From NCBI GenBank assembly GCA_021731405.1, contig JAKFXN010000003.1, positions 44,676 through 108,675 of the forward strand: a stretch of 64,000 nucleotides of DNA, written 5' to 3'. The first letter of the stretch is position 1. Every line of letters starts with the position of its first letter. Below the pieces are notes generated by a model, which did no database searches, was not told where the DNA came from, and worked only from the letters and a program-made list of their open reading frames with translations. Both the position numbers and the translations under genes were made by a program. Source of the DNA: Candidatus Parcubacteria bacterium (GTDB lineage: Bacteria; Patescibacteriota; Minisyncoccia; Phycocordibacterales; UBA918). Below are positions 19,861 through 64,000 of this stretch, piece after piece.

Positions 19861-20355
19861 GTGAAAAACGAAGATAACAAATTTTCGGCCCTGTGCCCGT
19901 GCGATATGGGTGCTTCGTGGACAGGGTTCAACTGGGCAAAGTACCCAGGGGGTGTTCAAGTGAGCTTTGCTCTGACCGACGGCAGGCGACTGCTGCTGGT
20001 CAAGCCGACTCGCTGGAACTATGTGATGATGCAGCTGCCTCTGGAGAAGACAGGCAGCCTCGATGGGGTTCTGGCAAAGATGTACACCGAGCTGCGAAAG
20101 GTCGGCATCGCGGTGTCTGGTGTCGGCAAACCAACCGTTCAGCAGGTGCTCGAAAAGACCGGTATTTTCAATGTTTTGGTGGTGGTGCCGTATGCCCAAG
20201 TCTCGGGATCGGCTGCTTCGATGGAATGTGTCGATTCGGCACTGATGTTGCGCGGCTTTTGGGTCTCGAACCCCATGGCCACGTTTGTGCCGCGGCTGCT
20301 CGGTTGGGGTGACGCACACGAGATGCCTGAAGAACAGGTTCTGCAGGCGGCCTAA
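19861..20355 (+). CDS. GC-rich orphan ORF (164 aa, GTG start) of unknown function, compositionally foreign
   Basis: GC ~55-60% vs ~35-44% flanks; strong GC3 bias in this frame; AGGAG 6 nt upstream of GTG; two terminators downstream. Confidence 0.55.
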   Translation: MKNEDNKFSALCPCDMGASWTGFNWAKYPGGVQVSFALTDGRRLLLVKPTRWNYVMMQLPLEKTGSLDGVLAKMYTELRKVGIAVSGVGKPTVQQVLEKTGIFNVLVVVPYAQVSGSAASMECVDSALMLRGFWVSNPMATFVPRLLGWGDAHEMPEEQVLQAA

Positions 20356-20466: not shown

Positions 20467-20710
20467 TATCAAAGTACTATTTTAAGCCTTCTTTTAACTT
20501 CTTGTTTGAACTTGCAAAAGTTTTCGACTCTGGTACTATTGCCGAACCGCACACAGATTATGTCTGTGCGTGGAGCGAACATAGTATTGCTCTTTCACAC
20601 GTTTCGAGTGTTCATTCTCAGCGCGATTGTTCTCGCCGCTTAGAATGTACGCTCGGACATAGCTTTTTAGTAGCTGTGTGCGGATTATTAAAATAGTATC
20701 TTTCATTAAT

Positions 20711-28357: not shown

Positions 28358-28412
28358 GCGTCCTAAGTGGTAAGAGTTGCTCAAAAGCCCCCGCAACGGG
28401 GGCTTTTTCATT

Positions 28413-28967
28413 TCAACAAATATTTGGCGCAATAACTTTCTTGGCTAGTGAAATGGTAGCGAGCATGAGTATTGCTAGTCCTATATATCCAACCTCGAGT
28501 CCTTGGTAGGGCAGAAATCCAAGAATAGATGAGAATCCAACGAGTCCAAGGAGTGTACTTAAAAGTGCCGTTCCACAAGCGGCACAGCCAACACCAAGAA
28601 GGGCAAAAAATAGCCCTATTCCACTATATAAGTTGGTTTTCATAAGTACTTTTGCACGGGTTGTAAAATAGGTGTATGCAAAAGCGAGGTTTATTCCGCT
28701 TAGTACTGAACCAAGAATAACCAAAATAAGACTTCCTAGCGTGAATGAACTTCCAATGTCAAAAAGGTAACTAAAAATAAGGGTAGTTTTTTCCACCCAA
28801 GAAAAGCTCAGCTTTGAAATACTAAGCAAAGTTTCGCTTTTTTCAACTAAAAGAATAGTAAGAAGAAAAAACAGGGTAGACCCCATAAGTACCATACGAC
28901 TGTCCTTTTTCTGGGCTACTACGCGAAGGCTTTTTAAGAAGGCTTTCATGTGTGTATAGTGTACCAA
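28413..28967 (-). CDS. polytopic membrane protein with intramembrane CAAC (CxxC) motif
   Basis: 4-5 TM helices; LLGVGCAACGTALLSTL inside a hydrophobic segment. Confidence 0.45.
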   Translation of the reverse strand: MVHYTHMKAFLKSLRVVAQKKDSRMVLMGSTLFFLLTILLVEKSETLLSISKLSFSWVEKTTLIFSYLFDIGSSFTLGSLILVILGSVLSGINLAFAYTYFTTRAKVLMKTNLYSGIGLFFALLGVGCAACGTALLSTLLGLVGFSSILGFLPYQGLEVGYIGLAILMLATISLAKKVIAPNIC

Positions 28968-29059
28968 CTATAAAAATAGGTACAATCAAAAACTAGTGGT
29001 CTAGTTTACTACAAAGCTGATAAAAAATATGAATATTTGTATAATAAGACGACTTTTGT

Positions 29060-29734
29060 ATGAAGAACGTACTTGTTATCGGAGGGTCATCGGGAATTGG
29101 TTATTCCTGTGTTTCGCTTTTTCATCAGAATAAGTGGAATGTCTTTGCGACGTATTTATCGCACAGCCGAGAAGGTGACAGGAGAGCTGTTTGGCAAAAG
29201 GTAGATATAACTGATAGTACACAAACTGATGTTTATCTAAACTCCTTACCAAAGCTAGATGCTGTTATTGTCTGCGCCGCAAAAAACAAAACTACAAAAC
29301 TAGAGGGAGTCTCTGCAGAAATTGAGGCAGTATTCAATACAAATCTTATTTCCCAAATACGGTTAATGGTTCCTCTGAAAGTGAAACTTAAAAAAAATTC
29401 ATCAATCATTTTTTTTGGTTCTATTACTGGACAGATTGGATCAGAACATCGAATTGCCTACAGTAGCTCTAAAGCTGCCATAACAGGACTGGTAAAGTCT
29501 TTGTCTCGTGAGCTTGCTCCGCATACTCGTGTGAATGCAATTTCTCCTGGGTATATAAAAACAAAACAATATAGCTTGAATAGTTCGATGAGTGATTCCG
29601 AGAGAACAAAAAAAATATTACTTAAGCGACTAGGAAGACCTGAGGAGGTTGCTGAGTTAGCTCTCTTTCTTTCCTCCGATACTGGGGGTTATATAAACGG
29701 ACAGATCATAAGTATTGATGGAGGTGTCATATAA
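29060..29734 (+). CDS. short-chain dehydrogenase/reductase (SDR)
   Basis: N-terminal VIGGSSGIGYS Rossmann motif, catalytic YSSSK (YxxxK). Confidence 0.85.
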   Translation: MKNVLVIGGSSGIGYSCVSLFHQNKWNVFATYLSHSREGDRRAVWQKVDITDSTQTDVYLNSLPKLDAVIVCAAKNKTTKLEGVSAEIEAVFNTNLISQIRLMVPLKVKLKKNSSIIFFGSITGQIGSEHRIAYSSSKAAITGLVKSLSRELAPHTRVNAISPGYIKTKQYSLNSSMSDSERTKKILLKRLGRPEEVAELALFLSSDTGGYINGQIISIDGGVI

Positions 29735-29736
29735 GT

Positions 29737-30405
29737 ATGCAGAAAAAAGACACTGCAATCATTGTGCTCGGAGGTGGAAAAGGGGAACGCTTTGGTTCAC
29801 TTAAACAGTTTACAAAAATTAAGGGAAAGACCCTTTTGTGTATTGTTGTTGATACACTGCTGGGATATAAGTTAAGTTCAACGCTAGTTCTGGTGGTTCC
29901 AAAAGACAATGTATCGGCTGCAGAGCAGCTGTATAAAAACAATTCTGAAGTTGTAGTGTTAGCTGGCGGGACAAGTCGCTTTGAGAGTACCAAGATAGCT
30001 TTGGATTACCTGCATGAAAAAAAATGTCAGTTCGTTTTTATTCATGATGCGGTACGACCATTTGTTCGAAAGGTAGACTTTCTAAGCCTGCACAAAGCAA
30101 TGGCAAAAGAGAATACCGAAGGCGCAGTATTATTTTTGCCAATAACTGACTCCGTTGTTTCTTCTGGGACTAAAAAAAATCAAATAGTACACCTTGATAA
30201 TACTAAATTGCGAGCTACCCAGACGCCACATCTTTATAAATACAAAACACTTGCTGCGACCTTTGCGTCAACTCGTAAGAAAGTAGAGAACGCAAAATTG
30301 ATGGAGTCTTCTGGGTACCAACTATCTTATGTACTAGGGTCACGTTTCAATATTAAAATTACGCATCAAATAGACATGCCGCTGTTTAAGTACTGGTCTC
30401 TATGA
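29737..30405 (+). CDS. IspD/TarI-like sugar-alcohol-phosphate cytidylyltransferase
   Basis: AIIVLGGGKGERFG...LKQF and IHDAVRP motifs of IspD/TarI family. Confidence 0.7.
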   Translation: MQKKDTAIIVLGGGKGERFGSLKQFTKIKGKTLLCIVVDTLLGYKLSSTLVLVVPKDNVSAAEQLYKNNSEVVVLAGGTSRFESTKIALDYLHEKKCQFVFIHDAVRPFVRKVDFLSLHKAMAKENTEGAVLFLPITDSVVSSGTKKNQIVHLDNTKLRATQTPHLYKYKTLAATFASTRKKVENAKLMESSGYQLSYVLGSRFNIKITHQIDMPLFKYWSL

Positions 30406-32465
30406 AAAAAATATCATTTATCGTTTATTATCCCTACCAGTGGTTTATTTATAAAAATGTTTACAATAAACTCGATCCAACTAAAAGAGAAATTATTGTC
30501 GATCTAGGCTTCCAGCCGCTGCTACAGAATAAAGATCTCGAACAAAGTATCGTTGCTTTACTGACTGAGAACAATGTCACATTTCGAACTTTACAGCATA
30601 TTGATTTTGTACGAGAGAAATACTTAGAAGATTTTTTCTCAAATGTTGAGGTCATTGTGTCTTGTTGGGAAGCCTCCTCGGTGGCGATTCCACAAACGGA
30701 GCATATTAAGAAAGTGGGTATGACCTATGGCATTGCCAAGGAACTAACGTTACTTCGGCCAACTCGTTCAATATACGACGTCATACTTGCTTACGGCGAG
30801 CGCGACAAGAAGCTGTTTGAGTTGATGACAAAATCCATTGCTATCGGTAACCCAAGAGCGGATGCGTTTTACCTAGGTGAAAAGCATGTCACGCCTGATA
30901 TCGCAGCTATTAATACTTTTATTGCCGGAGGCAAACCCTCAGTGTTATATGTACCAACACACGGTGACCTGAGCTCTCTCTCGACTATGAGGGAGACAAT
31001 AGCTAGTCTTGCTCCAAGGTATAACATAATAGTTAAACCCCATTACTACACACTGCGTGAAGACGCGGCTCTTGTCGGGAAGTACAGAGACATACCTGAG
31101 GTACTTGTAGTTGACGATACCGTCGATACCTTTGACGCCATAGCAGCTGTTGATGTTGTACTAAGTGACAATTCTAGTGTCATATTTGACGCTATGCAGG
31201 CAGGTAAGGATATCATCGTGTCTGACTTTTTGTCGCCACACTTCTTAGATACACTTCATAAAAATTTACGCTTTTCAAAGCGAGGACTCATTGGTGCTTC
31301 AACCTATTCAAAAAGTATTGAACAAGAAATTAAGGACAATGATTTAGTGGCTGTTATCAAAAAGCCTGAAGAGTTGGAAACTTTACTGAAAGATATTGCT
31401 GCCATCAATGCAAAATATACAACTAAGCAAGCAGAAATTGTGCGCGAAAATTTTGCTTATACGGACGGACATTCATCTGATAGAGCGGTGAAAATAATTA
31501 ATGAGGTATATGTTGAACCTCGCAATTACACTCCAGGAATTCTCCACCATGCGTATCAGGCGTTTGGAAACAGACTATACCGTACGCTTGTAAACAAAAA
31601 AGAAGAGGACGAAAGATTGAATGCTTCGGGCAAAGATCTGATTGTCTGGATTATTGCCACAACTAAGACCGAAGAAAAAGAGTTGCAGGCAACAGTATAT
31701 TCCGCCTTAGGGAATCCTACCGTCAGTCAGGTATATGTCAGCGGTTTTCCGCGGAAAATTTTCGGAGATAGTGAAAAAGTGCATGAGATGACCCATGATG
31801 AGGTATTAAAGGCTCTCTATGAGACCCTCTCTCTAGAAGCTGATCTTTGTATTACGACACCAAATACCTTACTTAAAAATCTCAGTGCTGCGACAGTATT
31901 TAAGCAAGTAAATGCCAAAGAAGCTTTGTTTTTTGCAGAAAATGGTAGCGCAAAACCATCTCAAGTGTCACAGACACTTGATGTAAGCCTCTTGCTAAAA
32001 AATGAAATATTGAACTACGAAACTGTTTGGCGGGATATATTGCTTGATGTTTCCTATGCTCAAGTTAAATCTTTAGAGAAGTGTGCCGTACTTATTGGGG
32101 TTGAAACACTGCGAGCGCAGCCGCGTATTGATTTCAAGAACATTTCTTTTGAACAGATAAGCGCCTATTGTATAGAAATATATCGTTTGCAGGCTATGCC
32201 TTTTTACGTGATGCCAAACTTCTTTCAAGTACATACAAACCCTGATCCTGAGAGGATGTTTAGTAAATTATCAAACCGTGCGATTTATCTAGAAAAAGAT
32301 GGGCTTAGTGTGTGGCAATGGGCTGATTTCAAGCCAGGTAAGTATATATGGAAATGTGTACGAGGTGATTTAAGGTATGCAAAGCTCCTTCGTCTTTTGC
32401 TGATTAAAGTATTCATTTACACAAAAGTACATTTGCACACAAAAGGTTATATTAAAAGGCTGTAG
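30402..32465 (+). CDS. TagF/TarL-like CDP-alditol phosphotransferase domain protein with ~280-aa C-terminal extension
   Basis: KPSVLYVPTHGD...IIVKPHYYT...VVLSDNSSVIFDAMQAGKDII resemble Glyphos_transf catalytic core; 4-nt overlap with upstream gene. Confidence 0.55.
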   Translation: MKKISFIVYYPYQWFIYKNVYNKLDPTKREIIVDLGFQPLLQNKDLEQSIVALLTENNVTFRTLQHIDFVREKYLEDFFSNVEVIVSCWEASSVAIPQTEHIKKVGMTYGIAKELTLLRPTRSIYDVILAYGERDKKLFELMTKSIAIGNPRADAFYLGEKHVTPDIAAINTFIAGGKPSVLYVPTHGDLSSLSTMRETIASLAPRYNIIVKPHYYTLREDAALVGKYRDIPEVLVVDDTVDTFDAIAAVDVVLSDNSSVIFDAMQAGKDIIVSDFLSPHFLDTLHKNLRFSKRGLIGASTYSKSIEQEIKDNDLVAVIKKPEELETLLKDIAAINAKYTTKQAEIVRENFAYTDGHSSDRAVKIINEVYVEPRNYTPGILHHAYQAFGNRLYRTLVNKKEEDERLNASGKDLIVWIIATTKTEEKELQATVYSALGNPTVSQVYVSGFPRKIFGDSEKVHEMTHDEVLKALYETLSLEADLCITTPNTLLKNLSAATVFKQVNAKEALFFAENGSAKPSQVSQTLDVSLLLKNEILNYETVWRDILLDVSYAQVKSLEKCAVLIGVETLRAQPRIDFKNISFEQISAYCIEIYRLQAMPFYVMPNFFQVHTNPDPERMFSKLSNRAIYLEKDGLSVWQWADFKPGKYIWKCVRGDLRYAKLLRLLLIKVFIYTKVHLHTKGYIKRL

Positions 32466-32489
32466 TTACCTTTTGGTATACTTATCTCT

Positions 32490-33359
32490 ATGTTAGAAAG
32501 TTGGTACGCAGCTCTCCTGAAATTTAAAACATATACATTACTTTGTTTTGATCTTATTAATGATCTCCGTCTGCATGTAATCTTTAACTATTTTCTCGTC
32601 GTTTCGTGGTTTTTGTATGCGTCTGGACTTTCGGCCTCTCGCTCGGTTAGTTACGCCGCGCTTATGGCTTGTTTGGCAGGGTTTAGCTATTTACTCAATC
32701 GCTATACAGACTATAGCTACGATGTGATTGTTGATAGAGGACTAGCAAAAGTATCTCCAAAAGTATATTTAGTATTGTCAGCTTGTTTTTTTGTTTGCGG
32801 ACTCGTTTTGGTCTATGTGTATCCTCAGTATCTTTTCCCAATTATATTGGGAACCTGTCTGGGGATTTTTTATAGTGTGAAGACGATTTTTAAATACCCG
32901 CTTAAGAATTATTTTGTAACAAAAAATTTATTTGCCGCTTTTTCAAAATACTTGGGCACTATGATTGGAGTGCTGCTGGTCATTCCGTTTTCCGAAGGCC
33001 TGCTTATTCGCAGTATTTCGATGTTTGCTTTTCATCTTATCTATGAAATTTTGTGGGACATACGTGACATTGAGTCTGATAGGGCTGGAAATGTTTCAAC
33101 TATTCCAAACAGATATGGCAAGACATTAGCTCTCGTTGTCTGTGTCTTAATATGGCTTATAAGCTTTCAGGCTCAATATTTTGTGGTAAACCATTCGGAA
33201 TACTTCTTTATAAAATATGCTGTTGTGTTATCGATTATATTTTCACTCATTTTTATTACAACGGTGCGCTGGTACCACGTGGCGATTTATATCCACATTG
33301 TTCTTTCACTCATTTTTATCAATAAAGAAGTTATTTTGTTTATACGAAGTCTCTTGTAA
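32490..33359 (+). CDS. UbiA-superfamily prenyl/phosphoribosyl transferase (membrane)
   Basis: LNRYTDYSYDVIVDRG = NxxxDxxxD Asp-rich motif in polytopic membrane protein. Confidence 0.6.
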   Translation: MLESWYAALLKFKTYTLLCFDLINDLRLHVIFNYFLVVSWFLYASGLSASRSVSYAALMACLAGFSYLLNRYTDYSYDVIVDRGLAKVSPKVYLVLSACFFVCGLVLVYVYPQYLFPIILGTCLGIFYSVKTIFKYPLKNYFVTKNLFAAFSKYLGTMIGVLLVIPFSEGLLIRSISMFAFHLIYEILWDIRDIESDRAGNVSTIPNRYGKTLALVVCVLIWLISFQAQYFVVNHSEYFFIKYAVVLSIIFSLIFITTVRWYHVAIYIHIVLSLIFINKEVILFIRSLL

Positions 33360-33362
33360 TCT

Positions 33363-33390
33363 TTGACATTTACAGATAGTAAGGTAGAAT
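33363..33390 (+). promoter_or_regulatory. sigma70-like promoter for GC-rich ORF
   Basis: TTGACA-16nt-TAGAAT. Confidence 0.45.
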
Positions 33391-33466
33391 ATAACCATCT
33401 TTTATAACACTTGGGGTAAGGTACCTTAGGTGGGGAATCATAAAAGAGTTCTTTTAGGAGATTTTC

Positions 33467-33949
33467 ATGAAGCGTCAATCTGCATGCAAAGGACTCTTTG
33501 CATCTCTCGCCATCTCGTTCCTGTGCCTCATCGGCACGTCCGCTTTCGCGCAGGAATCTGGTGTCAAGGCCGTTTCGACCAACAGCGATCCCATGGCACA
33601 AGTGGTGCTGACGGAAGCCGAGGTCCGCGCCCTCGTCACCGACAAGTCGGTCACTTGGGAAGCTGGCCAGTGGGGCCTCTGCCGGAATGACTTCAAGGCT
33701 GACGGTACGTTCACTTTCGAGTGCAACGGCAGCAACAACAAGTACTACGACACCGGCAAGTGGTACTTCAAGGACCACGAGTCCGAGCCTCGTCGCATGA
33801 TCTGTCGTGACTACGACAAGCAGAAAAAGGGGAGTTGTATGTCCATGGCCAGAAGTGAGGCTGGGGAGACCTTCTACTTCTTTGGGTTGTCCAAGAAAAA
33901 ACAAAATAAGGTCACTCGCGTCACCGAACTCGTGCAGGTTCCCATGTGA
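33467..33949 (+). CDS. GC-rich orphan ORF encoding secreted Cys-containing protein (160 aa)
   Basis: GC ~58%; signal peptide MKRQSACKGLFASLAISFLCLIGTSAFA|QE; AGGAG 6 nt before ATG; perfect terminator 33967-33995. Confidence 0.55.
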   Translation: MKRQSACKGLFASLAISFLCLIGTSAFAQESGVKAVSTNSDPMAQVVLTEAEVRALVTDKSVTWEAGQWGLCRNDFKADGTFTFECNGSNNKYYDTGKWYFKDHESEPRRMICRDYDKQKKGSCMSMARSEAGETFYFFGLSKKKQNKVTRVTELVQVPM

Positions 33950-33966
33950 ACAGGCTCGAGCCGAGC

Positions 33967-33995
33967 AAACCGCCAACCCAGTTGGCGGTTTTTTC
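33967..33995 (+). terminator. terminator
   Basis: aaaccgccaac-cca-gttggcggttttttc. Confidence 0.85.
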
Positions 33996-34033
33996 TTGTC
34001 CAAATTTGATGGTACACTGCGTCTAAGACAATT

Positions 34034-35272
34034 ATGAACTGGCTAGAAAAAATATTTCACCATTCAGAACTTTTTACCCAAAGAAGTATCCAAGCGCTAT
34101 ACGTCATCTTGTTTTTTGATCTTGTCTTTACGTTCAACAGCTGGACTTCACAAGGATACCTAACAGTACAAAGTGTAAAAGAAAATGACGCAATCTGCTG
34201 GCCATATTTTCAGAATTGTTTGGATCTGTATGTTTTTCAAGCCATACCGCAAGGCTATAGTTTGGGTATTCTGTACATGGTAATAGGAGGTTTCCTGTTT
34301 ACCTCGCTATATTTTTCCTACAGAGAAAAGTGGGACAAGGCACTGCTTTTTTTAGCAATACCAGCTCTGTTTAAGTTTTTGATGTTGTACGTGTTCTCCT
34401 ATCTGCCAATTGGTAATTACCATGTACTCGGATTGGTATTTGTACTCCTCCTCCTATTTGCTAAGCACAAATTATTCGCACTAAAGGTTGCAGTAACCGT
34501 TTTTTATTTTTGTGCTGCCGCCCTCAAAATTAACGCTGGCTATATTTCAGGCTCAATCTTTTCTTCCTTAGCGCTCGGCGTGCCAATTTTCCCGAATAGT
34601 TTGTTACCGTATTACGGCCTCGTCTTCATACTTATAGTTGTAGCGGTACCCTTTTTCCTCTGGTCGGCTGAATTACGAGTACGTATTATGGCTGTGAGTA
34701 TTTTGGCAGCGTTTCATGTGTATAGTATTACCCTCGTAGGGTTTCGTTTTGCGGCTCTTTGTATACCAATATTGTTTATACTTTTTATACTATCTGATTA
34801 TGAAAAATTCTCTTTCAAGAAAATACGGACAGATGTTTTTTCCTTCATTCTGATTAGTCTGATTATTTTAGGGCAAAGTCTACCTATTATAATTGCCGGT
34901 GATGAAAGAATCACCAGTGAAGGTGAAAAATACGGTTTTTATATGTATACCGCTAATCGACAGTGTATCAGAACGATAAATGTACATTACAAAGATGGCA
35001 CGAGCGCTGAAAATACCTACGAAGACAGAAAGGGGATGAGACGCTGTGACCCCTATGAAGATTGGTTCAGGATTCAGCAAGCGTGTAAGCAAGATACCGT
35101 TTCTCGAATAGAGTGGATTTTTAACGTAAGTATCAATGGGTCCTACTTCTATACTCTGGTTGATGTTCCAAATGCTTGTGTCATAACTGAATATAAGGCT
35201 TTTTCACACAATGACTGGCTAAAAACCGACATTCAAGATACGAGTCTTCCAGTATTAAAAAATAGTATTTAA
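34034..35272 (+). CDS. polytopic membrane protein (~8 TM) with C-terminal extracytoplasmic Cys-containing domain; possible membrane glycosyltransferase
   Basis: Hydropathy only; context next to UbiA/TagF genes. Confidence 0.4.
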   Translation: MNWLEKIFHHSELFTQRSIQALYVILFFDLVFTFNSWTSQGYLTVQSVKENDAICWPYFQNCLDLYVFQAIPQGYSLGILYMVIGGFLFTSLYFSYREKWDKALLFLAIPALFKFLMLYVFSYLPIGNYHVLGLVFVLLLLFAKHKLFALKVAVTVFYFCAAALKINAGYISGSIFSSLALGVPIFPNSLLPYYGLVFILIVVAVPFFLWSAELRVRIMAVSILAAFHVYSITLVGFRFAALCIPILFILFILSDYEKFSFKKIRTDVFSFILISLIILGQSLPIIIAGDERITSEGEKYGFYMYTANRQCIRTINVHYKDGTSAENTYEDRKGMRRCDPYEDWFRIQQACKQDTVSRIEWIFNVSINGSYFYTLVDVPNACVITEYKAFSHNDWLKTDIQDTSLPVLKNSI

Positions 35273-35328
35273 CTACATAAGTGCATAATTTTGCTATCCG
35301 CTAAAATCATTGTGATACCATTAAGGTA

Positions 35329-35598
35329 ATGATAAATAGTATTCCAAAGAAAATAGGGTATCTATTGCTAGCTTTAGCAGTAACTGCTTTAGGGTTTATT
35401 TTATCTCTAATTCCGGCGGGGCAAAAAGCGACCGCTGACGTAGCTATGACAAATGCCGACTATTGTGGCGTTGGTGGTCCTGGATACATGTCAGAATATT
35501 GTTATTCAATTGGATTTTATTATTACACTGACAGCGGTGGCGACGCTGCTGCTGCTTGCGGCGACGCCGCTGGAGCTGACTGTTGCTCTGCTAGTTGA
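35329..35598 (+). CDS. small secreted Cys/Gly/Tyr-rich peptide precursor (89 aa, 6 Cys in C-terminal 45 aa)
   Basis: N-terminal hydrophobic leader then DYCGVGGPGYMSEYCYSIGFYYYTDSGGDAAAACGDAAGADCCSAS. Confidence 0.5.
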   Translation: MINSIPKKIGYLLLALAVTALGFILSLIPAGQKATADVAMTNADYCGVGGPGYMSEYCYSIGFYYYTDSGGDAAAACGDAAGADCCSAS

Positions 35599-35617
35599 TT
35601 GTTCTAAAACTTAATAT

Positions 35618-36667
35618 ATGAAAAGCCCTGTTTTTATTGCCATTGTCCTCGTTCTAATAGCAGTTGTTGTCTTTGCGGCGAGATTGTTTCTTCTTGATCG
35701 AGAAATCACAATGCAAGCTGTGCCTCCTGCTCAAACCGAAGAAGGGAACAACGATGGTTTTGTAGATATTACTAAACAGGCAGTTGAGACAAACTCTGAT
35801 TTACAGGAAGGTATTCGACTTATAGAAAATGGTAGATTTGCCGACGCTCGAGTTTATTTACAAAAAGCGGTAGAAACAGAAACTGACCCAAATACCAAAT
35901 CAGTGGCTGACCTGACATTCGCAAGTACTTACTTTAGGGATAATCAGCCTGAGTTAGCCGCTGAAAACTTATTGCGTGTTGCCAACGAGCCATCGTATCC
36001 TAGCTCTACTCGTGCTTTTGCACTGACGACAATTGTGCAGCAGTATAATGCCACAAAAGACATCTCACTTCTCAAAGTCTTTGGAGACACTGAAGAATTT
36101 AACACCAGCTATTTACTACAGGGAGCACACAGACAAATCGTTACCCTCTTTCCAATGGGTCTGTCAGTCGCATACCTAGCAAGAATCGATATGGATAGAT
36201 TTGCGGATAAAGCTGAAATCACGTATCAAGAGGCAATTGAGAAGATTGACGCAGACATCATTTTTCAAAACAAGGGCCTAGAAAGTAATTATCTTGTACC
36301 GAATATAATGATTGCAAAAGCAAATCTGATGGCTAAAGCAGAAGGCCTTGGGTTTGAAGATCGGCGTGAAGTAATTAAAGCTTATAAAGACGCAATTACT
36401 ACCGCTAAAGAAAAGCTTCAGGCAACTACTGCTCAGTTTGCCATGCTCCAGTACATGAACTACTTGGGTAAAAATGTTGAAGAAAATACGGTACTTATCG
36501 ATGAAGCCCTCGCAATCTTTGAAGCAGAGAAACTAACTGAAATGGTCGTCAATCACTTGGGACGAGAAGAGGTTGTCTACGAGTGGCCAGGGATTATTGC
36601 TATTGCACGAGTAAATGAAGCATACGTTACATTCTTCTCCCAATATGTTCCAGTTCCCCAACAGTAA
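35618..36667 (+). CDS. membrane-anchored helical-repeat (TPR-like) protein
   Basis: N-terminal TM helix, alpha-helical repeats; no catalytic motif. Confidence 0.4.
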   Translation: MKSPVFIAIVLVLIAVVVFAARLFLLDREITMQAVPPAQTEEGNNDGFVDITKQAVETNSDLQEGIRLIENGRFADARVYLQKAVETETDPNTKSVADLTFASTYFRDNQPELAAENLLRVANEPSYPSSTRAFALTTIVQQYNATKDISLLKVFGDTEEFNTSYLLQGAHRQIVTLFPMGLSVAYLARIDMDRFADKAEITYQEAIEKIDADIIFQNKGLESNYLVPNIMIAKANLMAKAEGLGFEDRREVIKAYKDAITTAKEKLQATTAQFAMLQYMNYLGKNVEENTVLIDEALAIFEAEKLTEMVVNHLGREEVVYEWPGIIAIARVNEAYVTFFSQYVPVPQQ

Positions 36668-37184
36668 AGTGTACGCGCTTATTGCCCTAACTCTCGTTTT
36701 AGGGATATTAGTAGCGCTCAGTTTTCGTATTGTTCGCTATACAGACCTCTTGCCCCCACAGATAGTCGACATAAGCCCCGTTGAGGCGTATGAAAACATT
36801 CTTGGTAATCCCGAAAAATACATTCTCATAGATGTTCGCTCTGGTTCTGAGTACCAAAACGCCCACGCTACAGGTTCGGTAAACTTACCGATACATTATC
36901 TCTATGATGATATGCACGGTTTGCCTAATGAACTACGTGTTCCTGTACCAAAAAATACCGATCAGGAGATATACCTTTTATGTACTGGAGGTAGATTGGC
37001 GGGTGTAGCCTATGGATATCTTGAACACCATGGCTATCGAAACATTAAACGAATCGAAGGAGGTATTGCAAACTGGGCAAAAAGTGGGCTCCCGATTATA
37101 ACCAAGTCCCTCTTTTCTGGGACAGAAGTAGATTTTAATACTGCGACAGAGGGTGAGCTCGATAGACCGTATGTTCAAGAATAA
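36645..37184 (+). CDS. membrane-anchored rhodanese-domain sulfurtransferase
   Basis: ILIDVRSGSEYQNAH...LLCTGGRLAG (active-site Cys loop). Confidence 0.75.
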   Translation: MFQFPNSKVYALIALTLVLGILVALSFRIVRYTDLLPPQIVDISPVEAYENILGNPEKYILIDVRSGSEYQNAHATGSVNLPIHYLYDDMHGLPNELRVPVPKNTDQEIYLLCTGGRLAGVAYGYLEHHGYRNIKRIEGGIANWAKSGLPIITKSLFSGTEVDFNTATEGELDRPYVQE

Positions 37185-37884
37185 GGGCTTAATTCTTTTT
37201 CTCCTCGTCGTATTTTTTATAGGATCGGGTTTATTTCTTTATACAAATGAGGAAAGAGTACCAGAACAAGAAATAAACCTAAGTGAGACACTGACTATCC
37301 GTGAGAACGAACATTATCTTAGCTTTGCAGAGGATTCAGAATACACTGTTGTTGAATACCTAGACTTTGACTGCGTTTTTTGCAGGCGGTTACATCTGGA
37401 ATTAGACAAAGGAGGAGTCGATTATTCTAAAATTACCTATATCATCAGAAGTTTTCCAAGCACAGGCGTAGTCTTGTATTCAAAAAAAGCCTTAATTGCT
37501 GAATGTATATATGACCAAAGTGGAGACGCAGGGTACTTAGCCTTTATTGATTTGTACTTTAAGACCTGGGGTAATAAAAATGACCTTACTTGGGCAACTA
37601 AGATTGCGGAAAATCTTGTGACTGACAAGGACGCTTTATACAATTGTTTAGAAAACAACCAAGCAATAAAAGATACTATCAGTAGTAATTTTACGCTTGA
37701 TAGTATTGCTGGCGTTACGCAGACTCCTTCGTTTTATGTTTATAAAAACAATGTACTTGAACAAAAGTTTGTTGGACTTGGAGCAAAGACATACCGAAAC
37801 TTAATGAGGTATTACTCTCGAAATAGTAGGGGGTATTTAAATACCTGGACGACGCTCCCGCTTTTTGAAAATGTACGCCGATAA
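37171..37884 (+). CDS. DsbA-like thioredoxin-fold thiol:disulfide oxidoreductase (membrane anchored)
   Basis: N-terminal TM helix; LDFDCVFCRRLH CxxC active site. Confidence 0.7.
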   Translation: MFKNKGLILFLLVVFFIGSGLFLYTNEERVPEQEINLSETLTIRENEHYLSFAEDSEYTVVEYLDFDCVFCRRLHLELDKGGVDYSKITYIIRSFPSTGVVLYSKKALIAECIYDQSGDAGYLAFIDLYFKTWGNKNDLTWATKIAENLVTDKDALYNCLENNQAIKDTISSNFTLDSIAGVTQTPSFYVYKNNVLEQKFVGLGAKTYRNLMRYYSRNSRGYLNTWTTLPLFENVRR

Positions 37885-38157
37885 TTTTTTCTGCTCTCCA
37901 AGCGCATGAAATATATGGGGCGCAATATCTGGGTTGCAGTGCACTGCCACTTTTTGAACGCCTTGCCCTGATATCAAAAGTTCCATCCCAGCGTTAGTAA
38001 AAACAGCAGTGACCCTTCTCTTGCCGCTCTTGCTTTTTCCTTGCGTAATAATACCTGGTGAAACAAGAGTTACTCCAGGTATTTTTTCAAGGAGAACAAC
38101 TACTTCCTCGGCGGTCTCGGTCAGAGTTGAGTGGGTACCACCACGAATGTTCTTCAT
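37837..38157 (-). CDS. hypothetical protein (106 aa)
   Basis: ORF only. Confidence 0.35.
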   Translation of the reverse strand: MKNIRGGTHSTLTETAEEVVVLLEKIPGVTLVSPGIITQGKSKSGKRRVTAVFTNAGMELLISGQGVQKVAVHCNPDIAPHIFHALGEQKKLSAYIFKKRERRPGI

Positions 38158-38249
38158 TACTTAAGTGTAGCAAAAATGGACTGTCTTTGCTTATGTATTC
38201 CAGTTTAGCCCCTTAACCTTTTTCTTAACAAATGACATACTAGAGGGTA

Positions 38250-38846
38250 ATGGAAGACGATGTGCTATATGTAAATAGATGTAAAGCTGGTGACACAGAA
38301 GCTTTTGGCGTATTGTACGATCGGTACATAGATAAAATCTATCGATTTGTTTTTTATAAAACGTTTGTTAAAGAAGTGGCGGAAGATATCACAAGTGATG
38401 TATTTCATAAGGCACTGCAAAAGATTAATTCTTACGAAGCTGACAGGGGCGTATTTAGCGCTTGGATATATCGTATCGCCCGCAATAATGTGATTGATTA
38501 TTACCGCAGTCAGAAAGGAGACGTACCGCTTGAGGATGTATTTGACGTTGGGTTTGATGAACGTACTCCCGAATCGCTCGACGCCATTGCGGCCCTTGAT
38601 AAAGTGAATGTGTATCTTGAGACTTTGAGTAGTAAGCAGCGGGAGATCATCACCCTTCGGGTTTGGGAAGAGCTGCCTTACCTCGAAATTGCCGAGATTG
38701 TGGGCGGTACGGAAGATAGTGTAAAGATGGCTTTTTCTCGCAGTATCCGTGAATTGCGTGAAAAGTGTGGACCCATTTCACCCCTACTTCTCTTTGTGGC
38801 GGTTGGGTTTTCAGAGCAGGCGTTACTTTTTCATGATTTTACGTAA
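38250..38846 (+). CDS. ECF (extracytoplasmic function) RNA polymerase sigma factor
   Basis: sigma-70 region 2 (YDRYIDKIYRFVFYK...DITSDVF) and region 4 (LSSKQREIITLRVWEELPYLEIAEIVG). Confidence 0.85.
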   Translation: MEDDVLYVNRCKAGDTEAFGVLYDRYIDKIYRFVFYKTFVKEVAEDITSDVFHKALQKINSYEADRGVFSAWIYRIARNNVIDYYRSQKGDVPLEDVFDVGFDERTPESLDAIAALDKVNVYLETLSSKQREIITLRVWEELPYLEIAEIVGGTEDSVKMAFSRSIRELREKCGPISPLLLFVAVGFSEQALLFHDFT

Positions 38847-39771: not shown

Positions 39772-40785
39772 ATGGAATTTATCAAAAAGATTGATTGGAG
39801 TAAGCCAGGAATACAGCTCGCGTTTGTGGGTCTGTTTGGCGTATTCGCTTTTATAGTATTGTCGGGTACCAGTATTCAAAACCCAATGCCTTCATTCTCT
39901 AAGGACAGTGAAGAAGCGATGTATTATGGCGATGGCTATGCGGTTTCGTCAGATATGGGCATGGGATATGGACAAGAACTTTCTCTTCGTAATGTAGAAG
40001 GAAGCATCATGCCACCAATGCCAGATTTTGCCCCAGGCAATGACGCTGAAGCGTATGAGGTAAAGCAGTACTCAGCTACTATCGAAACTAGAAACCTAGA
40101 AGAGGATTGTTCTACTGTACGTTCACTCATGGAGCGCGAAGATGTTATCTTTCAAAATAAAAATGAATACGAACAAGGATGTTCATATAGTTTTAAGGTA
40201 GAGAAGGAGAGCGTTGAGGAAGTGCTAGCTATCTTAGAAGCGCTTGATCCAAAAGATCTTAGTGAAAACTCCTACACCATTAAGCGTGAAGTGGCTGATT
40301 ACACGGGAGAGATTGAAATTCTCGAGAAGAAGCTCGCTACGCTAGACCAGACTCTGACCCAATCGCTCGCCAGTTATGACACCCTAAGTGCACAAGCAAC
40401 TGCTCGAGGCGACGTAGCAACGCTCGCTCAGATTACTGAAAGTAAGATAACCCTTATTGAGCGCCTAACTATCACTCGTATTGATACTGTCGGACAACTC
40501 GATAGACTAGCTCGAGCGAAAGCTGAAGCGCTTGACCAGCTCGTGTACACAAACTTCTACGTAAATATTTACGAAAACACCTTCGTAAACGGTGAAGAGA
40601 TTAAGACTTCGTGGATAGAAGCGGTTAAAGAATTGGTGCGAGAGATCAACACCTTCGCACAAGAGGTAAGTCTTGGGTTTGTAGCACTCTTGTTTATGGT
40701 AGTGAAATATTCACTTTACGGTATCGTACTACTCTTTGTAGCTCGCTTTGCCTACTCATTCGCTCGAAAAGTCTGGACTTCATAG
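39772..40785 (+). CDS. DUF4349-like protein (N-terminal TM, coiled coil, C-terminal TM)
   Basis: Architecture and position next to ECF/anti-sigma pair. Confidence 0.45.
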   Translation: MEFIKKIDWSKPGIQLAFVGLFGVFAFIVLSGTSIQNPMPSFSKDSEEAMYYGDGYAVSSDMGMGYGQELSLRNVEGSIMPPMPDFAPGNDAEAYEVKQYSATIETRNLEEDCSTVRSLMEREDVIFQNKNEYEQGCSYSFKVEKESVEEVLAILEALDPKDLSENSYTIKREVADYTGEIEILEKKLATLDQTLTQSLASYDTLSAQATARGDVATLAQITESKITLIERLTITRIDTVGQLDRLARAKAEALDQLVYTNFYVNIYENTFVNGEEIKTSWIEAVKELVREINTFAQEVSLGFVALLFMVVKYSLYGIVLLFVARFAYSFARKVWTS

Positions 40786-46031: not shown

Positions 46032-46098
46032 TTGACATAGCAAAGATAAGTTGGTTTTATAAGTAAGGAACCTGTCCTTACTAACTTCTGGAGGTGTT

Positions 46099-46428
46099 AT
46101 GCCTAAAATCACTGACGATCACGCAAAGGCAGGCGGGCATTCAGCTGCCGCGTCAAAAGCGAATGCTTTTTCGACTCCACCCAAGCGAGATGAGGCGCTT
46201 ACTGAGCGGATTTTGCTTAGTGGCGGCGGCTACAAGGTGGTGTTTCCTCCCGACTGGCACAAGAAAAATGGCCGCAAAGGGGGAGAAGAAACGCTGTCTT
46301 CAGCTGAAAGTGGTGCGCCTCGGTTTAAATTGGGTGACCACCCACTTGATGTTGATGTGCTTACGCGACTCAATTTTCTTCCTGTTCACCGTCATGGCTT
46401 TGCAAAAGACAAAAAACAGCGCTCTTAG
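46099..46428 (+). CDS. GC-shifted orphan ORF (109 aa, basic, unknown function)
   Basis: GC ~52% vs ~42% neighbours; GGAGG 5 nt before ATG; perfect terminator 46427-46465; alternative-frame ORF 46094-46468 in track is considered spurious. Confidence 0.5.
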   Translation: MPKITDDHAKAGGHSAAASKANAFSTPPKRDEALTERILLSGGGYKVVFPPDWHKKNGRKGGEETLSSAESGAPRFKLGDHPLDVDVLTRLNFLPVHRHGFAKDKKQRS

Positions 46429-46465
46429 ACAAACACTCGCTTCGGCGAGTGTTTCTTTTTGTTTG
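46427..46465 (+). terminator. terminator
   Basis: aaacactcgc-ttcg-gcgagtgtttctttttgtttg. Confidence 0.85.
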
Positions 46466-46645
46466 TAAGTAAAGGTAAAGCAGTTTCTCTTGACTTTAAG
46501 CCATTTTTTGGTACTCTTGCGGGCAAGGCGAGGCACTTAGAAATCTCAAAATATCTTAGTGTCCGCTGCTTGGCCGTAGGCTAGGCGATTATCAGGGGAT
46601 GAGTTGCGAATAACTACGCAATACCATCTCATAAAACACATATTT

Positions 46646-61801: not shown

Positions 61802-64000
61802 ATATGAATCAGTCCCTTTCCAAGTTCATTCGAGCGGCAGACTATTTGTCTGCCGCTCAAATTTATCTACGCGATAATTTTTTACTAACTGAGCCGCTGA
61901 AGCCAGAGCATATCAAGCCACGCTTGCTCGGTCACTGGGGCACCTGTCCTGGTGTTAACTTCACCTACGCTCATCTCAATCGCGCAATTATTGAGCATGA
62001 TCTTGATATGATGTTTGTCCTTGGGCCAGGCCATGGTTTCCCAGCAGTGCAGTCAAATCTATTTTTGGAGGGTACGCTTTCAAAATATTACCAGAATATT
62101 TCTCGTGACAAAAACGGTATTGCTGACATGTCCAAGCTATTTAGCTGGCCGTATGGTTTCCCGAGTCACAGTAACCCAGAAGCTCCTGGAGTGATTCTTG
62201 AAGGTGGGGAGCTGGGGTATGCGCTCGCTACCTCCTATGGAGCAGTACTTGATAACCCGAGTCTGATCGTCTCTTGTCTCATCGGTGACGGAGAAGCGGA
62301 GACTGGGCCAACCGCCACTGCGTGGCACCTGAGCAAGCTTGTTGATCCTGGGAAAAATGGCGCGGTGTTGCCAATCCTTCATCTCAATGGCTACAAGATT
62401 TCTGGGCCAACATTATATGGTCGAATGAACAACGACGAGCTCAGATCCCTCTTTATTGGCTACGGGTACGACCCAATTTTTGTGGATGCCTATGAAGGAG
62501 ATGACGTGCATGATCAAATGCGAGCGGCACTTGATAAAGCAGTGACTGACATTCGCTTTACCCAGCACTGCGCGCGTGAGATGACTCTCAAAGAGAACCC
62601 TCGTTGGCCGATGATTATTTTGCGTACCCCAAAAGGGTGGCACAGTATCAAACAGATCCGCGAAAAGAGAATCGAAGATAATCACTATTCTCACCAAGTA
62701 ATTGCCGAAGGCGCTGTCCATAATGAGGAAGAATTTCGTCTACTTGAAGAGTGGCTTCGCTCATACCGCTTTGAAGAGCTTTTTGACGGTGAGAAATTCG
62801 ACCAAGACATCGAATCTCTGGTTCCTCGACTAGATAGACGCATGGGTGATAATCCTCGGGCACATGGTGGTTCAACCTATCGTGCACTCAAGCTACCTGA
62901 CCTACAAAACTATAGTACTTCTGCCACCTGCAATCTTGACGACCCTATTTGTGGGGAAGTGAGTAGTATGGAGAAGATTGGTGAGTATCTCCGCGACATT
63001 ATGCGCATGAATGAAGACGAGAGAAATATTCGCCTCTTTTCACCAGATGAAACGTACTCCAACAAACTACAGGCTGTCTTTGAATACACTAAGCGGACGT
63101 TTGTATGGCCGCATCGAGAATGGGATAAGGACCTTGCTTGGGACGGGAGAGTAATGGAAATGCTTTCTGAACATAGTCTCCAGGGTCTTATTCAGGGGTA
63201 CATACTTACTGGCCGTCACGGTCTGTTTGTTTCCTATGAAGCTTTTGTGCAAATTGTAGCCAGTATGGCCGATCAATACGCAAAATTCTTAAAAATTGCC
63301 CGTGAGGTTCCTTGGCGAGGAACTATCTCATCATTGAACTATATTTTGACTTCAACTGGTTGGCGCCAAGAGCATAATGGTTTCTCTCATCAGAACCCAG
63401 GCTTCATAGATGGCGTGCTTCAGCGACAAGGATGCTTCACAAATGTGTATTTTCCAGCTGATGCCAACATTGCGCTGGCTACCTTTCATAAGATGATGAG
63501 TTCTACTCGTGAAATCAACGTGATGGTGTGCGAGAAGAGGCCGCTACCAATTTGGCGTACGCTTGAAGAAGCAGAAAAAGATGTGCGTGACGGACTATCA
63601 ATTTGGAACTTTGCGAGTGATGAAGACCCACACATTGTTATTGCTTCAGCCGGTGACTATCCAACACAAGAAGCATTGGCGGCAGTGAGTATTATTCGCA
63701 CCAAATTGCCTGAGCTCAGGATTCGTTTTGTGAACATCACTTCATTATCTGCGCTCGGAATGGGTAACTCTGAGTGTCGCGTGTTAGCACATGATTTTGC
63801 TGAATATTTCACAAAAGACAAACCAATCATCATCAACTTCCACGGCTACCCACAAACGATGAAGCAGGTGTTGTTTGATTATGGGTGTGATTCTAAACGG
63901 GTGAGTATTCATGGATATGAGGAGGTTGGCTCAACTACCACTGCCTTTGATATGATGGTTCGCAATCGTGTTGACCGGTACCATCTTGCTATGGAGGCGT
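61802..64000 (+). CDS. xfp: xylulose-5-phosphate/fructose-6-phosphate phosphoketolase (3' end outside window)
   Basis: LGHWGTCPG, EGGELGYAL, GDGEAETG TPP-binding motifs; frame open to window end, so absent from the complete-ORF track. Confidence 0.9.

Follow-up and report, generated by a model that had tools for sequence, protein, structure and literature searches.

Between a UbiA-like gene and the gene of a 412-aa polytopic membrane protein of Candidatus Parcubacteria lies a short GC-rich block (33361-33995; positions are those of the window, the whole stretch of 64,000 nucleotides that was analyzed) encoding a predicted exported protein of 160 amino acids. The original prediction took this block for a self-contained cassette that had entered the genome from the same foreign source as a second compositional outlier, located between fusA and tuf. 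The question raised by the locus is whether such a gene is a recent insert or a long-resident one whose composition is kept in place. We hold with moderate confidence that the gene encodes an envelope protein, has been inherited vertically, is probably strongly expressed and has a maintained GC content, and that it is not a recent insert.

The transcription unit and its product

The coding sequence of the 160-aa precursor (33467..33949, + strand; dN/dS 0.20 vs. lineage L007) is flanked, as had been described, by a gene of the UbiA family (PF01040, 1.7e-15) and by the 412-aa protein gene. Upstream of it a sigma-70-type promoter was located where the original prediction had seen one (33363..33390, + strand), consisting of TTGACA (33363-33368), a 16-nt spacer and TAGAAT (33385-33390), with 11 of 12 matches to the consensus. 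The match alone is not significant, being no rarer than chance: two sites of this quality are present on the two strands of the 64-kb window and about two are expected. Of the six other lineages for which the upstream region is available, five retain the -35 sequence TTGACA (L007/L001, L004, L005, L012, L008), and L010 has TTGACT instead. The Shine-Dalgarno sequence AGGAG (33456..33460, + strand), also noted before, lies 6 nt 5' of the ATG and has AGGAG, GAGGA or AAGGAG as its counterparts in the orthologs. Downstream follows the strong intrinsic terminator that had been claimed (33967..33997, + strand), an 11-bp stem with a 3-nt loop (AAACCGCCAAC-CCA-GUUGGCGGUUU) and then a U run; a strong hairpin and U run were found 3' of all orthologs having downstream sequence. 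As judged from its own promoter and its own terminator, both conserved in orthologs, the gene is an independent, monocistronic transcription unit. That part of the original prediction which described a self-contained unit for a small, exported, Cys-containing protein of no established family is thus supported.

The precursor starts with MKRQSACK-GLFASLAISFLCLIGTS-AFA, followed by QE, and shows by inspection the n/h/c layout of a signal-peptidase-I substrate: a positive n-region, a hydrophobic h-region and AXA at -3/-1, with no lipobox. The Sec signal peptide, as first proposed, would comprise codons 1-28 (33467-33550, + strand) with cleavage between AFA and QE, leaving a mature part of 132 aa; the orthologs retain a counterpart of the site (...FAQE or ...SAQD). 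The precursor contains six Cys (positions 7, 20, 72, 86, 113 and 124), four of which (C72, C86, C113 and C124) are in the mature part, where five had been counted. These four are invariant in the orthologs; Cys20 is not conserved and lies outside any lipobox. In the mature part there are 13 K, 7 R, 8 D and 10 E (pI 8.35). The orthologs, which span 27-86% identity, all have the signal peptide and the four Cys.

In the source record another protein is annotated at this place, namely a 238-aa product of an antisense ORF (33287..34003, - strand). Its exact sequence, but not that of the 160-aa protein, was found in an NCBI-derived collection, on the source contig (173,530 bp); the annotation of L007 likewise calls the antisense ORF, which was picked in two of three assemblies. 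That the antisense ORF is the real gene and the 160-aa ORF its shadow is extremely improbable, even though it is the longer of the two, is called in two public annotations and is open in the window, L007, L001 and L003. The antisense frame, which is codon-aligned, stays open because the sense gene is without TTA, CTA and TCA codons, and it does so automatically once these are missing. It overlaps the terminator, leader and promoter of the sense gene as well as 73 nt of the UbiA gene, and in L004, L005, L012 and L008 it is interrupted by 1-10 stops, whereas the sense frame remains open. The protein read from the sense frame carries a signal peptide and invariant Cys, and it has a confidently predicted fold and homologs down to 27% identity. 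The conservation pattern thus already refutes the antisense reading, and by the same comparative evidence the 160-aa gene on the + strand is real, because of its dN/dS of 0.20, the invariant signal peptide and Cys of its product and the lack of conservation of the antisense ORF.

The statement that the protein belongs to no recognisable family was nearly right. The sole family match is to Pfam DUF995 (PF06191), with 19.9 bits (E 6.7e-4) against a gathering cutoff of 20, and the alignment of profile positions 13-76 of 140 with residues 30-104 leaves most of the profile uncovered, so that by profile search the protein falls marginally outside the family. DUF995 matches weakly in four of eight members of the 160-aa family (best E 5.7e-4) and Pfam Triabin, also weakly, in two of eight. 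Searches of NCBIfam and PHROGs with the 160-aa protein and with the ORF between fusA and tuf gave no match, and PDB sequences searched with the family profile gave noise only (E > 0.9). The DUF995 proteins, small signal-peptide proteins of unknown function, share with the 160-aa family the size (about 140-160 aa) and the N-terminal signal peptide. They differ in that the score is under the cutoff with about half of the profile covered, in that the exhaustive sequence search of 1.84 billion proteins recovered no DUF995 protein, and in that the 160-aa family alone has the four-Cys pattern and a Patescibacteria host.

An AF2 model of the protein (core pLDDT 87-94) predicts one helix and about nine antiparallel strands. 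This architecture, in an exported and probably disulfide-containing protein, is reminiscent of calycins and lipocalins, for which the bacterial Blc may be cited. The top Foldseek matches in the PDB were lipocalins/calycins, namely Bla g 4 (3EBK), tick histamine-binding proteins, TP0435 and YxeF; with BFVD included, the top matches were lipocalins, lipocalin-like lipoproteins and MoaF-like domains, those in BFVD being similarly weak. Even the best PDB match, that to Bla g 4 (probability 0.82, E 0.55, TM 0.41), is non-significant, as are all others (E at least 0.06, TM 0.3-0.4, 7-15% identity). The model differs from lipocalins in that its helix is N-terminal to the barrel, and the lipocalin sequence motifs are not evident. 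The protein may be regarded as the member of an orphan family with weak lipocalin-like fold matches.

Synteny and distribution of the family

The order UbiA-like gene, 160-aa gene, 412-aa gene is identical in L001, L002 and L007 (86% identity) and in L004 (58%). At L005/L006 (40% identity) the gene is located 3' of a glycerophosphotransferase gene and 5' of a 412-like gene. A foreign insertion, as first proposed, is at odds with this syntenic position in AT-rich relatives, which the original prediction had itself named as grounds for refutation; the locus GC is 40% in L007/L001, 39.5% in L004 and 38% in L005/L006. More distant members, L012 (32% identity), L008 (hmmsearch 5e-16) and L010 (hhalign 91.6%), have a divergent TPR gene as neighbor and a 412 homolog within 5 kb. 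Thus every family member with enough flank is found 0-5 kb from a gene of the 412 family, with one copy per locus.

The gene of the 412-aa protein (34034-35272, + strand), which has a CWPxFxxC motif and matches no Pfam family even at E <= 10, is the first of a conserved module of five genes (34034..37884, + strand). It is followed by the genes of an 89-aa TM peptide with a Gly/Asp/Cys-rich tail (35329-35598), a 349-aa TPR-like protein (35618-36667), a TM-rhodanese (36615-37184) and a TM Thioredoxin_4/DsbA-like protein (37153-37884). The module reaches the Kaiserbacteria, there without the 160-aa gene, and the 160-aa family is absent at other Paceibacteria loci that carry the 412-aa gene. A borderline candidate from Kaiserbacteria (L029, 11725-12237; hmmsearch E 0.024) was discarded because hhalign gave it a probability of 19% over only 17 columns.

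An exhaustive search of 1.84 billion representative proteins yielded six matches at E <= 0.001, of which four are small proteins of the same type (136-158 aa). The other two, long repeat proteins of 1,426 and 1,998 aa in which the similarity comes from short stretches that recur, are probably spurious, and no homolog outside the clade was found among these 1.84 billion proteins. When one genome per GTDB species and the JGI metagenomes were scanned with an alignment of the family (A3), patterns matched but none encoded a relative; a wider alignment (A2) was without any stretch conserved enough for scanning. Comparison of the loci has shown the gene to be vertically inherited and confined to one narrow CPR/Patescibacteria (Paceibacteria-like) group, because it occupies the same slot across lineages and the searches just described brought up no homologs elsewhere.

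Base composition and synonymous constraint

The GC content is lower than the approximately 58% given originally: it is 51.8% for the block 33361-33995, 55.1% for the coding sequence and 55.8% for 33480-33995, with a peak of 64% in one 100-nt window. When the window is divided into 483-nt stretches (mean GC 0.439, sd 0.035), the coding sequence is nevertheless among the two richest in GC. Its GC of 0.551 compares with 0.36-0.38 in the flanks, and none of the other ORFs, 79 in all, reaches its GC3 of 0.727 (mean 0.414, sd 0.084). It is atypical in base composition as well as in codon usage. Further GC3 outliers at 46094-46468, 62137-62382 and 62413-62721 were set aside, their translations looking non-coding or out-of-frame.

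The second outlier, a 164-aa ORF between fusA and tuf (19861..20355, + strand; GC3 0.67), encodes no signal peptide, is clade-restricted and is syntenic in a relative at 60% identity. What the original prediction called a shared compositional signature holds for the high GC3 but not for the codons, third positions being rich in C in the 160-aa gene (C3 0.44, G3 0.29) and rich in G in the ORF between fusA and tuf (C3 0.26, G3 0.42). The codon choices of the two correlate with r = 0.49, as compared with 0.07 and 0.37 for each of them with host genes, and the EF-Tu-like use of C-ending two-fold codons is confined to the 160-aa gene.

These data bear on a recent horizontal insertion, by which a foreign GC-rich cassette from a source shared with the ORF between fusA and tuf would have come to lie between the UbiA-like and the 412-aa genes. 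The two genes are indeed the top compositional outliers of the window, with GC and GC3 far above the flanks, their codon choices agree better with each other than either does with host genes, and the cassette brings its own promoter and terminator; in these respects, and in encoding an orphan protein, the locus resembles an acquired genomic islet. It differs from an islet in its synteny over deep divergence: the gene is found in the same slot, down to 40% identity, in relatives whose flanking genes are synonymously saturated (dS 1-2). There are neither mobility genes nor meaningful flanking direct repeats at the locus, plasmids (tblastn) and phages (blastn) gave no match, no homolog outside the clade was recovered as a possible donor, the synonymous sites appear constrained, and the two outliers prefer different third bases. 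A recent insertion is very unlikely and, going by gene order, is already contradicted. The common foreign origin proposed for both ORFs finds no backing either, since both are syntenic in relatives and donor, phage, plasmid and repeats were not found.

The GC richness is shared by the family. Its genes have a GC of 0.38-0.55 as compared with 0.23-0.44 in their flanks, and GC3 is above that of the flanks in every lineage, the excess over background ranging from +0.35 in the lineage of the window to about +0.1 in L008. Relative to L007 the dS of the 160-aa gene is 0.355, that of 12 neighbours about 0.48-2.0 (UbiA gene 1.75, 412-aa gene 1.93), and the dN of the cassette (0.07) equals that of the neighbours. 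Inside the gene, synonymous divergence is lower over the folded domain (dS 0.20) than over signal peptide and linker (dS 0.69; Fisher p = 0.003). Synonymous third-position changes polarised with L003 were 5 GC-to-AT, 5 AT-to-GC and 5 GC-to-GC at 15 sites. We infer that the gene family maintains its GC richness, because its synonymous sites diverge three to five times more slowly than those of most neighbours and show no net drift toward AT.

Another reading is an ancient acquisition: a GC-rich donor, such as a DUF995-bearing bacterium, could have passed the gene to the ancestor of the clade, with the GC excess as a fading relic of slow and uneven amelioration. The DUF995 similarity in half of the members, albeit weak, points in this direction, the different GC3 excesses look like different stages of amelioration, and the family is missing from the other Paceibacteria loci with the 412-aa gene. 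A single shared date is hard to reconcile with the lineage that retains a GC3 of 0.72 although its neighbour dS is 1-2. Neutral decay toward a GC3 of 0.37 predicts a ratio of GC-to-AT to AT-to-GC changes of about 4.4:1 as compared with the observed 5:5 (binomial p = 0.024, 15 sites), and neutral decay under AT-biased mutation would make the synonymous divergence higher than in the neighbours, whereas it is lower. The protein, GTDB-species and metagenome searches brought up nothing that resembles a donor. We consider an ancient acquisition unlikely.

The low dS could alternatively mean that the cassette was recently exchanged among lineages. At such a recombination hotspot repeated exchange between related lineages would make the cassette look young and GC-biased gene conversion would raise GC3. 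The identity to L007 is indeed mosaic (95% in the leader, 77% in 33500-33650, 96-99% in 33650-33800 and 70-87% in the flanks), some 130 nt of core DNA are almost unchanged even in L003 (72% protein identity), and folded domain and signal peptide plus linker differ in dS by a factor of 3.5. But the conserved stretches coincide with the functional parts (leader, folded core and terminator), as constraint predicts, and with a dN equal to that of the neighbours a recent exchange would have to be followed by an unusually fast protein clock. The GC excess is found also in distant lineages too diverged for recombination, and a single copy per locus leaves no paralog for conversion. A hotspot is quite unlikely, and we continue with a vertically inherited gene of maintained composition.

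The cause of the GC richness is most likely selection at the level of mRNA or translation for strong, stable expression. The fraction of C-ending two-fold codons in the 160-aa gene is 0.83, which ranks second among 56 genes (EF-Tu 0.74). Ordinary translational selection cannot explain most of the GC excess, because those genes of the genome that are clearly highly expressed have four-fold codons ending in A or T: their GC at these sites is 0.15-0.30 vs. 0.70 in the 160-aa gene. Selected mRNA structure within the coding sequence was considered and dismissed, folding being no better than that of shuffles (z = -0.45).

The leader RNA and the proposed mode of expression

Between promoter and Shine-Dalgarno sequence there is a 54-nt leader, structured in the region 33398..33447 (+ strand) by two stems found in an RNAalifold consensus and a covariance model. 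Stem P1 pairs 33398-33405 (UCUUUUAU) with 33440-33447 (AUAAAAGA) and is invariant in sequence across lineages. It encloses hairpin P2 (33409-33417 with 33423-33431, closed by C33408-G33432), which covaries, and, 3' of P2, an unpaired, purine-rich junction GGGAAUC (33433-33439). The consensus has 18 pairs, nine of them with compensatory (double-sided) changes among 8 leaders from 5 lineages only; 93% of cells are paired as compared with 43-57% in slid controls, and the observed covariation was reached by none of 500 shuffles. The covariance model (R1) scored 53-83 bits, solely upstream of family members, in the 572 kb scanned, and Rfam gave no match for the leader at gathering or at E <= 10. 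Judged by its covariation, the leader is a conserved, locus-specific and previously undescribed cis-acting structured RNA. It begins 7 nt past the -10 box in the window, and in all lineages P1 starts 6-9 nt downstream of this box, which would place the leader at or beside the 5' end of the transcript.

A scan of metagenome contigs for a sequence pattern of the leader gave 85 matches, all with at most 31 bits (true ones at least 53) and no family ORF nearby, which were taken as chance. An alternative fold occluding the Shine-Dalgarno sequence is part of the window's MFE structure but not conserved in L004, L012 and L008. A known riboswitch or Rfam cis-regulator was discarded on the same ground and for lack of an Rfam match.

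In Bacillus subtilis a 5' stem-loop together with ribosome binding reportedly stabilises the aprE mRNA (Hambraeus 2002, as cited in PMC3997798). The leader of the 160-aa gene resembles the aprE type in having a stable stem few nucleotides from the presumed 5' end, a strong Shine-Dalgarno sequence and a gene for an exported protein. It differs in that an invariant outer stem encloses a covarying hairpin and a purine-rich junction, which exceeds the needs of a generic protective hairpin, and in that its motif is not in Rfam.

Our proposal is as follows. The gene would be transcribed alone from the near-consensus sigma-70 promoter to give an mRNA with a two-stem leader, a strong Shine-Dalgarno sequence and, at its end, a strong intrinsic terminator. 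The 5'-terminal stem-loop could block 5'-end-dependent decay, the Shine-Dalgarno sequence could load ribosomes, the C-ending two-fold codons would match those of EF-Tu, and the GC-rich four-fold sites would leave few AU-rich cleavage sites. From the sequence we infer that the 160-aa gene is strongly expressed. The precursor would be exported via Sec and cut after AFA to a basic protein of roughly 15 kDa, whose four invariant Cys probably form two disulfides; the adjacent membrane-anchored DsbA-like protein could form both. The mature protein is predicted to fold into a helix and a small antiparallel beta-barrel of the calycin/lipocalin type, and its gene has been passed down vertically in the clade beside the conserved envelope module. 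The weakest step of the proposal is the function: the protein may be a ligand- or lipid-binding or a structural envelope protein acting with the 412-aa module.

A bolder version, to which we give little credence, sees in the cassette a dedicated expression device. Its leader would do more than protect the mRNA: on a signal or the binding of a factor it would control translation or decay. The gene would have been GC-recoded to produce an abundant exported calycin-like protein, with which these lipid-auxotrophic ultra-small bacteria could take up hydrophobic molecules, or envelope precursors linked to polyprenyl, on the outer side of the membrane. The GC recoding of the 160-aa gene and of the ORF between fusA and tuf would then be a general strategy by which AT-rich CPR genomes escape AU-directed RNases.

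What looks like a textbook foreign insert would thus be a long-resident gene with its composition held in place, and composition-based island calls in streamlined CPR genomes can mislead. The public proteomes of these organisms lack the exported 160-aa protein because gene callers chose the longer antisense ORF that GC3-rich coding had opened, and other GC-shifted small genes are probably hidden by similar strand errors. The leader is a small, well-defined candidate cis-regulatory RNA in a phylum with almost no characterised RNA regulation. Finally, a clade-specific exported family that is physically linked to a widely conserved envelope module of the Paceibacteria may provide a handle on that module.

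Layout, composition and coding strand of the block

Between a UbiA-family gene (PF01040), preceded by genes for an SDR, an IspD-like cytidylyltransferase and a CDP-glycerol glycerophosphotransferase-domain protein, and the gene for a 412-aa polytopic protein of no family lies a block (33361-33995) in which every predicted feature is present on the plus strand: a promoter-like site TTGACA-16-TAGAAT (33363-33390), AGGAG 6 nt upstream of the ATG, a 160-aa ORF (33467-33949) and a hairpin with an 11-bp stem and a 3-nt loop followed by a T run (33967-33991). About 2 promoter matches of such quality are expected by chance per 64 kb; the site is credible because it is conserved, not because of the quality of the match. 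The original prediction of a self-contained secreted-protein cassette was right and its compositional anomaly is real, with minor numerical errors: GC is 51.8% in the block and 55.1% in the CDS (100-nt peak 64%) rather than about 58%, and the mature protein has 4 Cys (the precursor 6) rather than 5. The block and the ORF between fusA and tuf are the two most GC-rich stretches in the window, and the GC3 of the gene (0.727) is the highest among 79 ORFs (mean 0.414, sd 0.084). The contrast is exaggerated by the local background, since the envelope/glycopolymer region (28400-38400) is AT-shifted (GC 0.36-0.42 vs mostly 0.44-0.48 elsewhere in the window).

A 238-aa ORF in the codon-aligned antisense frame (33287-34003, minus strand) spans the whole block. 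The absence of TTA, CTA and TCA codons from the sense gene is all that keeps it open; in less GC-rich orthologs it contains 1-10 stops, whereas the sense frame is open throughout and encodes a protein with a signal peptide and invariant residues that is under purifying selection (dN/dS 0.20). We therefore rejected the antisense ORF as a real gene. For the 173,530-bp source contig the NCBI-derived protein collection contains the exact antisense protein and lacks the 160-aa protein, the annotation of the closest relative (GCA_040384005.1) gives a 187-aa antisense product (locus L007, 5342-5905, minus strand), and the true gene is called only in GCA_040384045.1. Wrong-strand calls of this kind are likely to be made systematically where a GC3-rich gene lies in an AT-rich genome.

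Relatives, neighbourhood and origin of the gene

A word-indexed search of 5.8 billion proteins yielded 2 relatives (86% and 72% identity), and HMMER, run exhaustively over 1.84 billion cluster representatives, gave 6 matches at E <= 0.001, four of them small proteins of the same type (73, 58, 40 and 32% identity). The other two (1,426 and 1,998 aa) are long repeat proteins that match via repeated short stretches and are probably spurious. The family HMM also matched (5e-16) a 164-aa protein in L008/L009, with a divergent TPR gene on one side and a DCC1-like/412-like pair on the other, and hhalign matched (91.6%) the 136-aa protein that occupies the equivalent place in L010. Gene order is identical to that of the window in L001, L002 and L007 (UbiA-like, gene, 412-aa); the gene lies between a UbiA-like gene and the start of a 412-like gene in L004, behind a glycerophosphotransferase and a 285-aa gene and ahead of the start of a 412-like gene in L005/L006, and between a TPR gene (minus strand) and a 412-like gene in L012/L013.

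Homologs of the 412-aa protein (30-39% identity) occur in many MAGs of Paceibacteria, Kaiserbacteria and other 'Patescibacteria', a spread that places the host as a deep lineage of this group; none of these 32 loci has the small protein. The distribution of the family and the arrangement of neighbours across loci mark the gene as specific to the clade and inherited vertically, an accessory to a conserved envelope neighbourhood made up of the 412-aa protein, a small TM peptide whose tail is rich in Gly, Asp and Cys, a TPR-like protein and two further TM proteins, a rhodanese and a DsbA-like one.

The first three, the TPR-like protein having about 350 aa, form a module recurring from the window lineage to Kaiserbacteria (window 34034-36667, plus strand; L029 7941-10924; L008 6001-8718; L010 4691-7215). 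None has a Pfam or NCBIfam family; the 412-aa protein carries a CWPxFxxC motif, and its C-terminal domain is rich in Cys. In L010 the module adjoins a YcaO gene, a hint of peptide modification. Farther downstream, a 337-aa protein without Pfam match (39772-40785, plus strand; L007 11753-12766) is 97.9% identical between orthologs; with dN/dS 0.024 at dS 0.48 its gene is the most conserved in the block compared with L007, and it may be an abundant structural protein.

A foreign origin had been proposed for the cassette; its syntenic position is kept in AT-rich relatives, the outcome that the proposal itself had set as its refutation. There are no flanking repeats of note and no phage or plasmid matches to the cassette, and neither the 1.84 billion representatives nor family-pattern scans of one genome per GTDB species and of JGI metagenomes gave a homolog outside the clade. 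In every ortholog GC exceeds that of its own flanks (L007, 0.54 vs 0.37-0.38; L004, 0.49 vs 0.24-0.37; L005, 0.48 vs 0.36-0.39; L012, 0.42 vs 0.27-0.43; L008, 0.38 vs 0.23-0.34; L010, 0.49 vs 0.31-0.36). When the window is compared with L007, synonymous sites in the neighbouring genes are close to saturation or past it (dS 0.48-2.0 over 12 genes; UbiA-like gene 1.75, 412-aa gene 1.93), and the gene itself, at an ordinary dN (0.07), has a dS of 0.355. Its dS is 0.69 in signal peptide and linker vs 0.20 in the folded domain (Fisher p = 0.003), and nucleotide identity to L007 climbs to 95% in the leader and to 96-99% at 33650-33800. Polarised with L003, the synonymous third-position changes fall evenly into GC-to-AT, AT-to-GC and G/C swaps (5 each), vs a GC-to-AT excess of about 4.4:1 expected under neutral decay to the genomic GC3 of 0.37 (binomial p = 0.024 in a small test). 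The family-wide GC excess, the low dS and the balanced changes fit a maintained composition better than a fading foreign signature. An ancient acquisition of the gene is unlikely, and recurrent exchange of the cassette between lineages we consider somewhat less probable still.

A common foreign donor had been suggested for this gene and the fusA|tuf ORF (19861-20355, plus strand; 164 aa, GC3 0.67), a stand-alone unit between terminators with a CPC motif near the N-terminus and no signal peptide, which the source annotation (P0018) starts later (149 aa). This ORF is a clade-restricted orphan with relatives at 60-77% identity only. Both genes are GC3-rich and their codon choices correlate (r = 0.49), but the one is C3-rich (0.44) and the other G3-rich (0.42), and only the former shares with EF-Tu, EF-G and ribosomal proteins the use of C-ending two-fold codons (0.83, rank 2 of 56). 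The differing preference and the syntenic ortholog downstream of fusA in L046 (GC3 0.61 vs 0.42 for fusA) tell against a common donor; a common cause could be selection on certain stand-alone genes of the lineage, or a biased process that affects them.

Between the fusA|tuf ORF and tuf, a stretch of 150-180 nt (20510-20690, plus strand) is about 92% identical to its counterpart in L046 (4540-4720). Preceded by a promoter-like site TTGCAA-17-TACTAT, it forms a very stable fold (-61.2 kcal/mol, z = -6.1) that CCGCACACAG/CUGUGUGCGG closes as terminal stem, and it matches nothing in Rfam; it is a candidate for a structured leader of tuf or for a small RNA. An Rfam scan of the whole window (1-64000) at gathering thresholds returned zero families and no tRNA, despite the fusA-tuf and ribosomal-protein regions.

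Leader RNA and gene product

A 5' leader starting 6-9 nt past the -10 box is common to all orthologs other than the L010 protein. In order, it comprises a CUUUUAU that never varies, a hairpin whose sequence does, a purine-rich GGNRAAY junction and, at its end, AUAAAAG or, alternatively, UAGAAG pairing by G-U wobbles. RNAalifold predicted an outer stem (P1) and an inner hairpin (P2) with 18 pairs, 9 of them with compensatory changes; 93% of the cells in the alignment pair (slid controls 43-57%), and none of 500 shuffles reached the observed covariation. The wobbles in P1 favour RNA pairing over a DNA palindrome. In 572 kb of related sequence the covariance model matched only ahead of family genes, and Rfam gave no match; matches of a pattern scan in metagenomes were dismissed as chance. 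In the simplest reading the leader would protect the mRNA by its 5'-terminal stem, in concert with the strong SD, in the manner of the aprE leader of B. subtilis (cited in PMC3997798). The invariance of P1 and junction leaves room for a specific regulatory factor.

AlphaFold2, run on a six-sequence alignment, predicted with confidence a core (pLDDT 87-94 for residues 50-130), with one helix and about 9 strands. Foldseek against PDB and BFVD found weak matches only (E >= 0.06), the plausible ones mostly lipocalins, calycin-like lipoproteins and MoaF-like barrels; Pfam DUF995 scored 19.9 bits, just below the cutoff of 20, over half of its profile, and two family members match Triabin faintly. 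In all members with a complete domain the four Cys are invariant (L008 retains the first pair only). At a distance of 3 kb downstream is the gene for a membrane-anchored Thioredoxin_4 protein, and in L010 there is a DsbB gene as well. From the predicted core, the weak fold matches, the Cys and these neighbours we infer a small exported barrel stabilised by disulfides; that it binds a ligand or acts in the envelope is conjecture.

How strongly the gene is expressed, how stable its mRNA is and what its product does are likewise matters of inference. New are an orphan exported protein family and a conserved leader RNA, together with GC-rich coding that appears to be maintained, and synonymous divergence suppressed, in an AT-rich CPR genome, at a gene whose wrong strand is systematically annotated.
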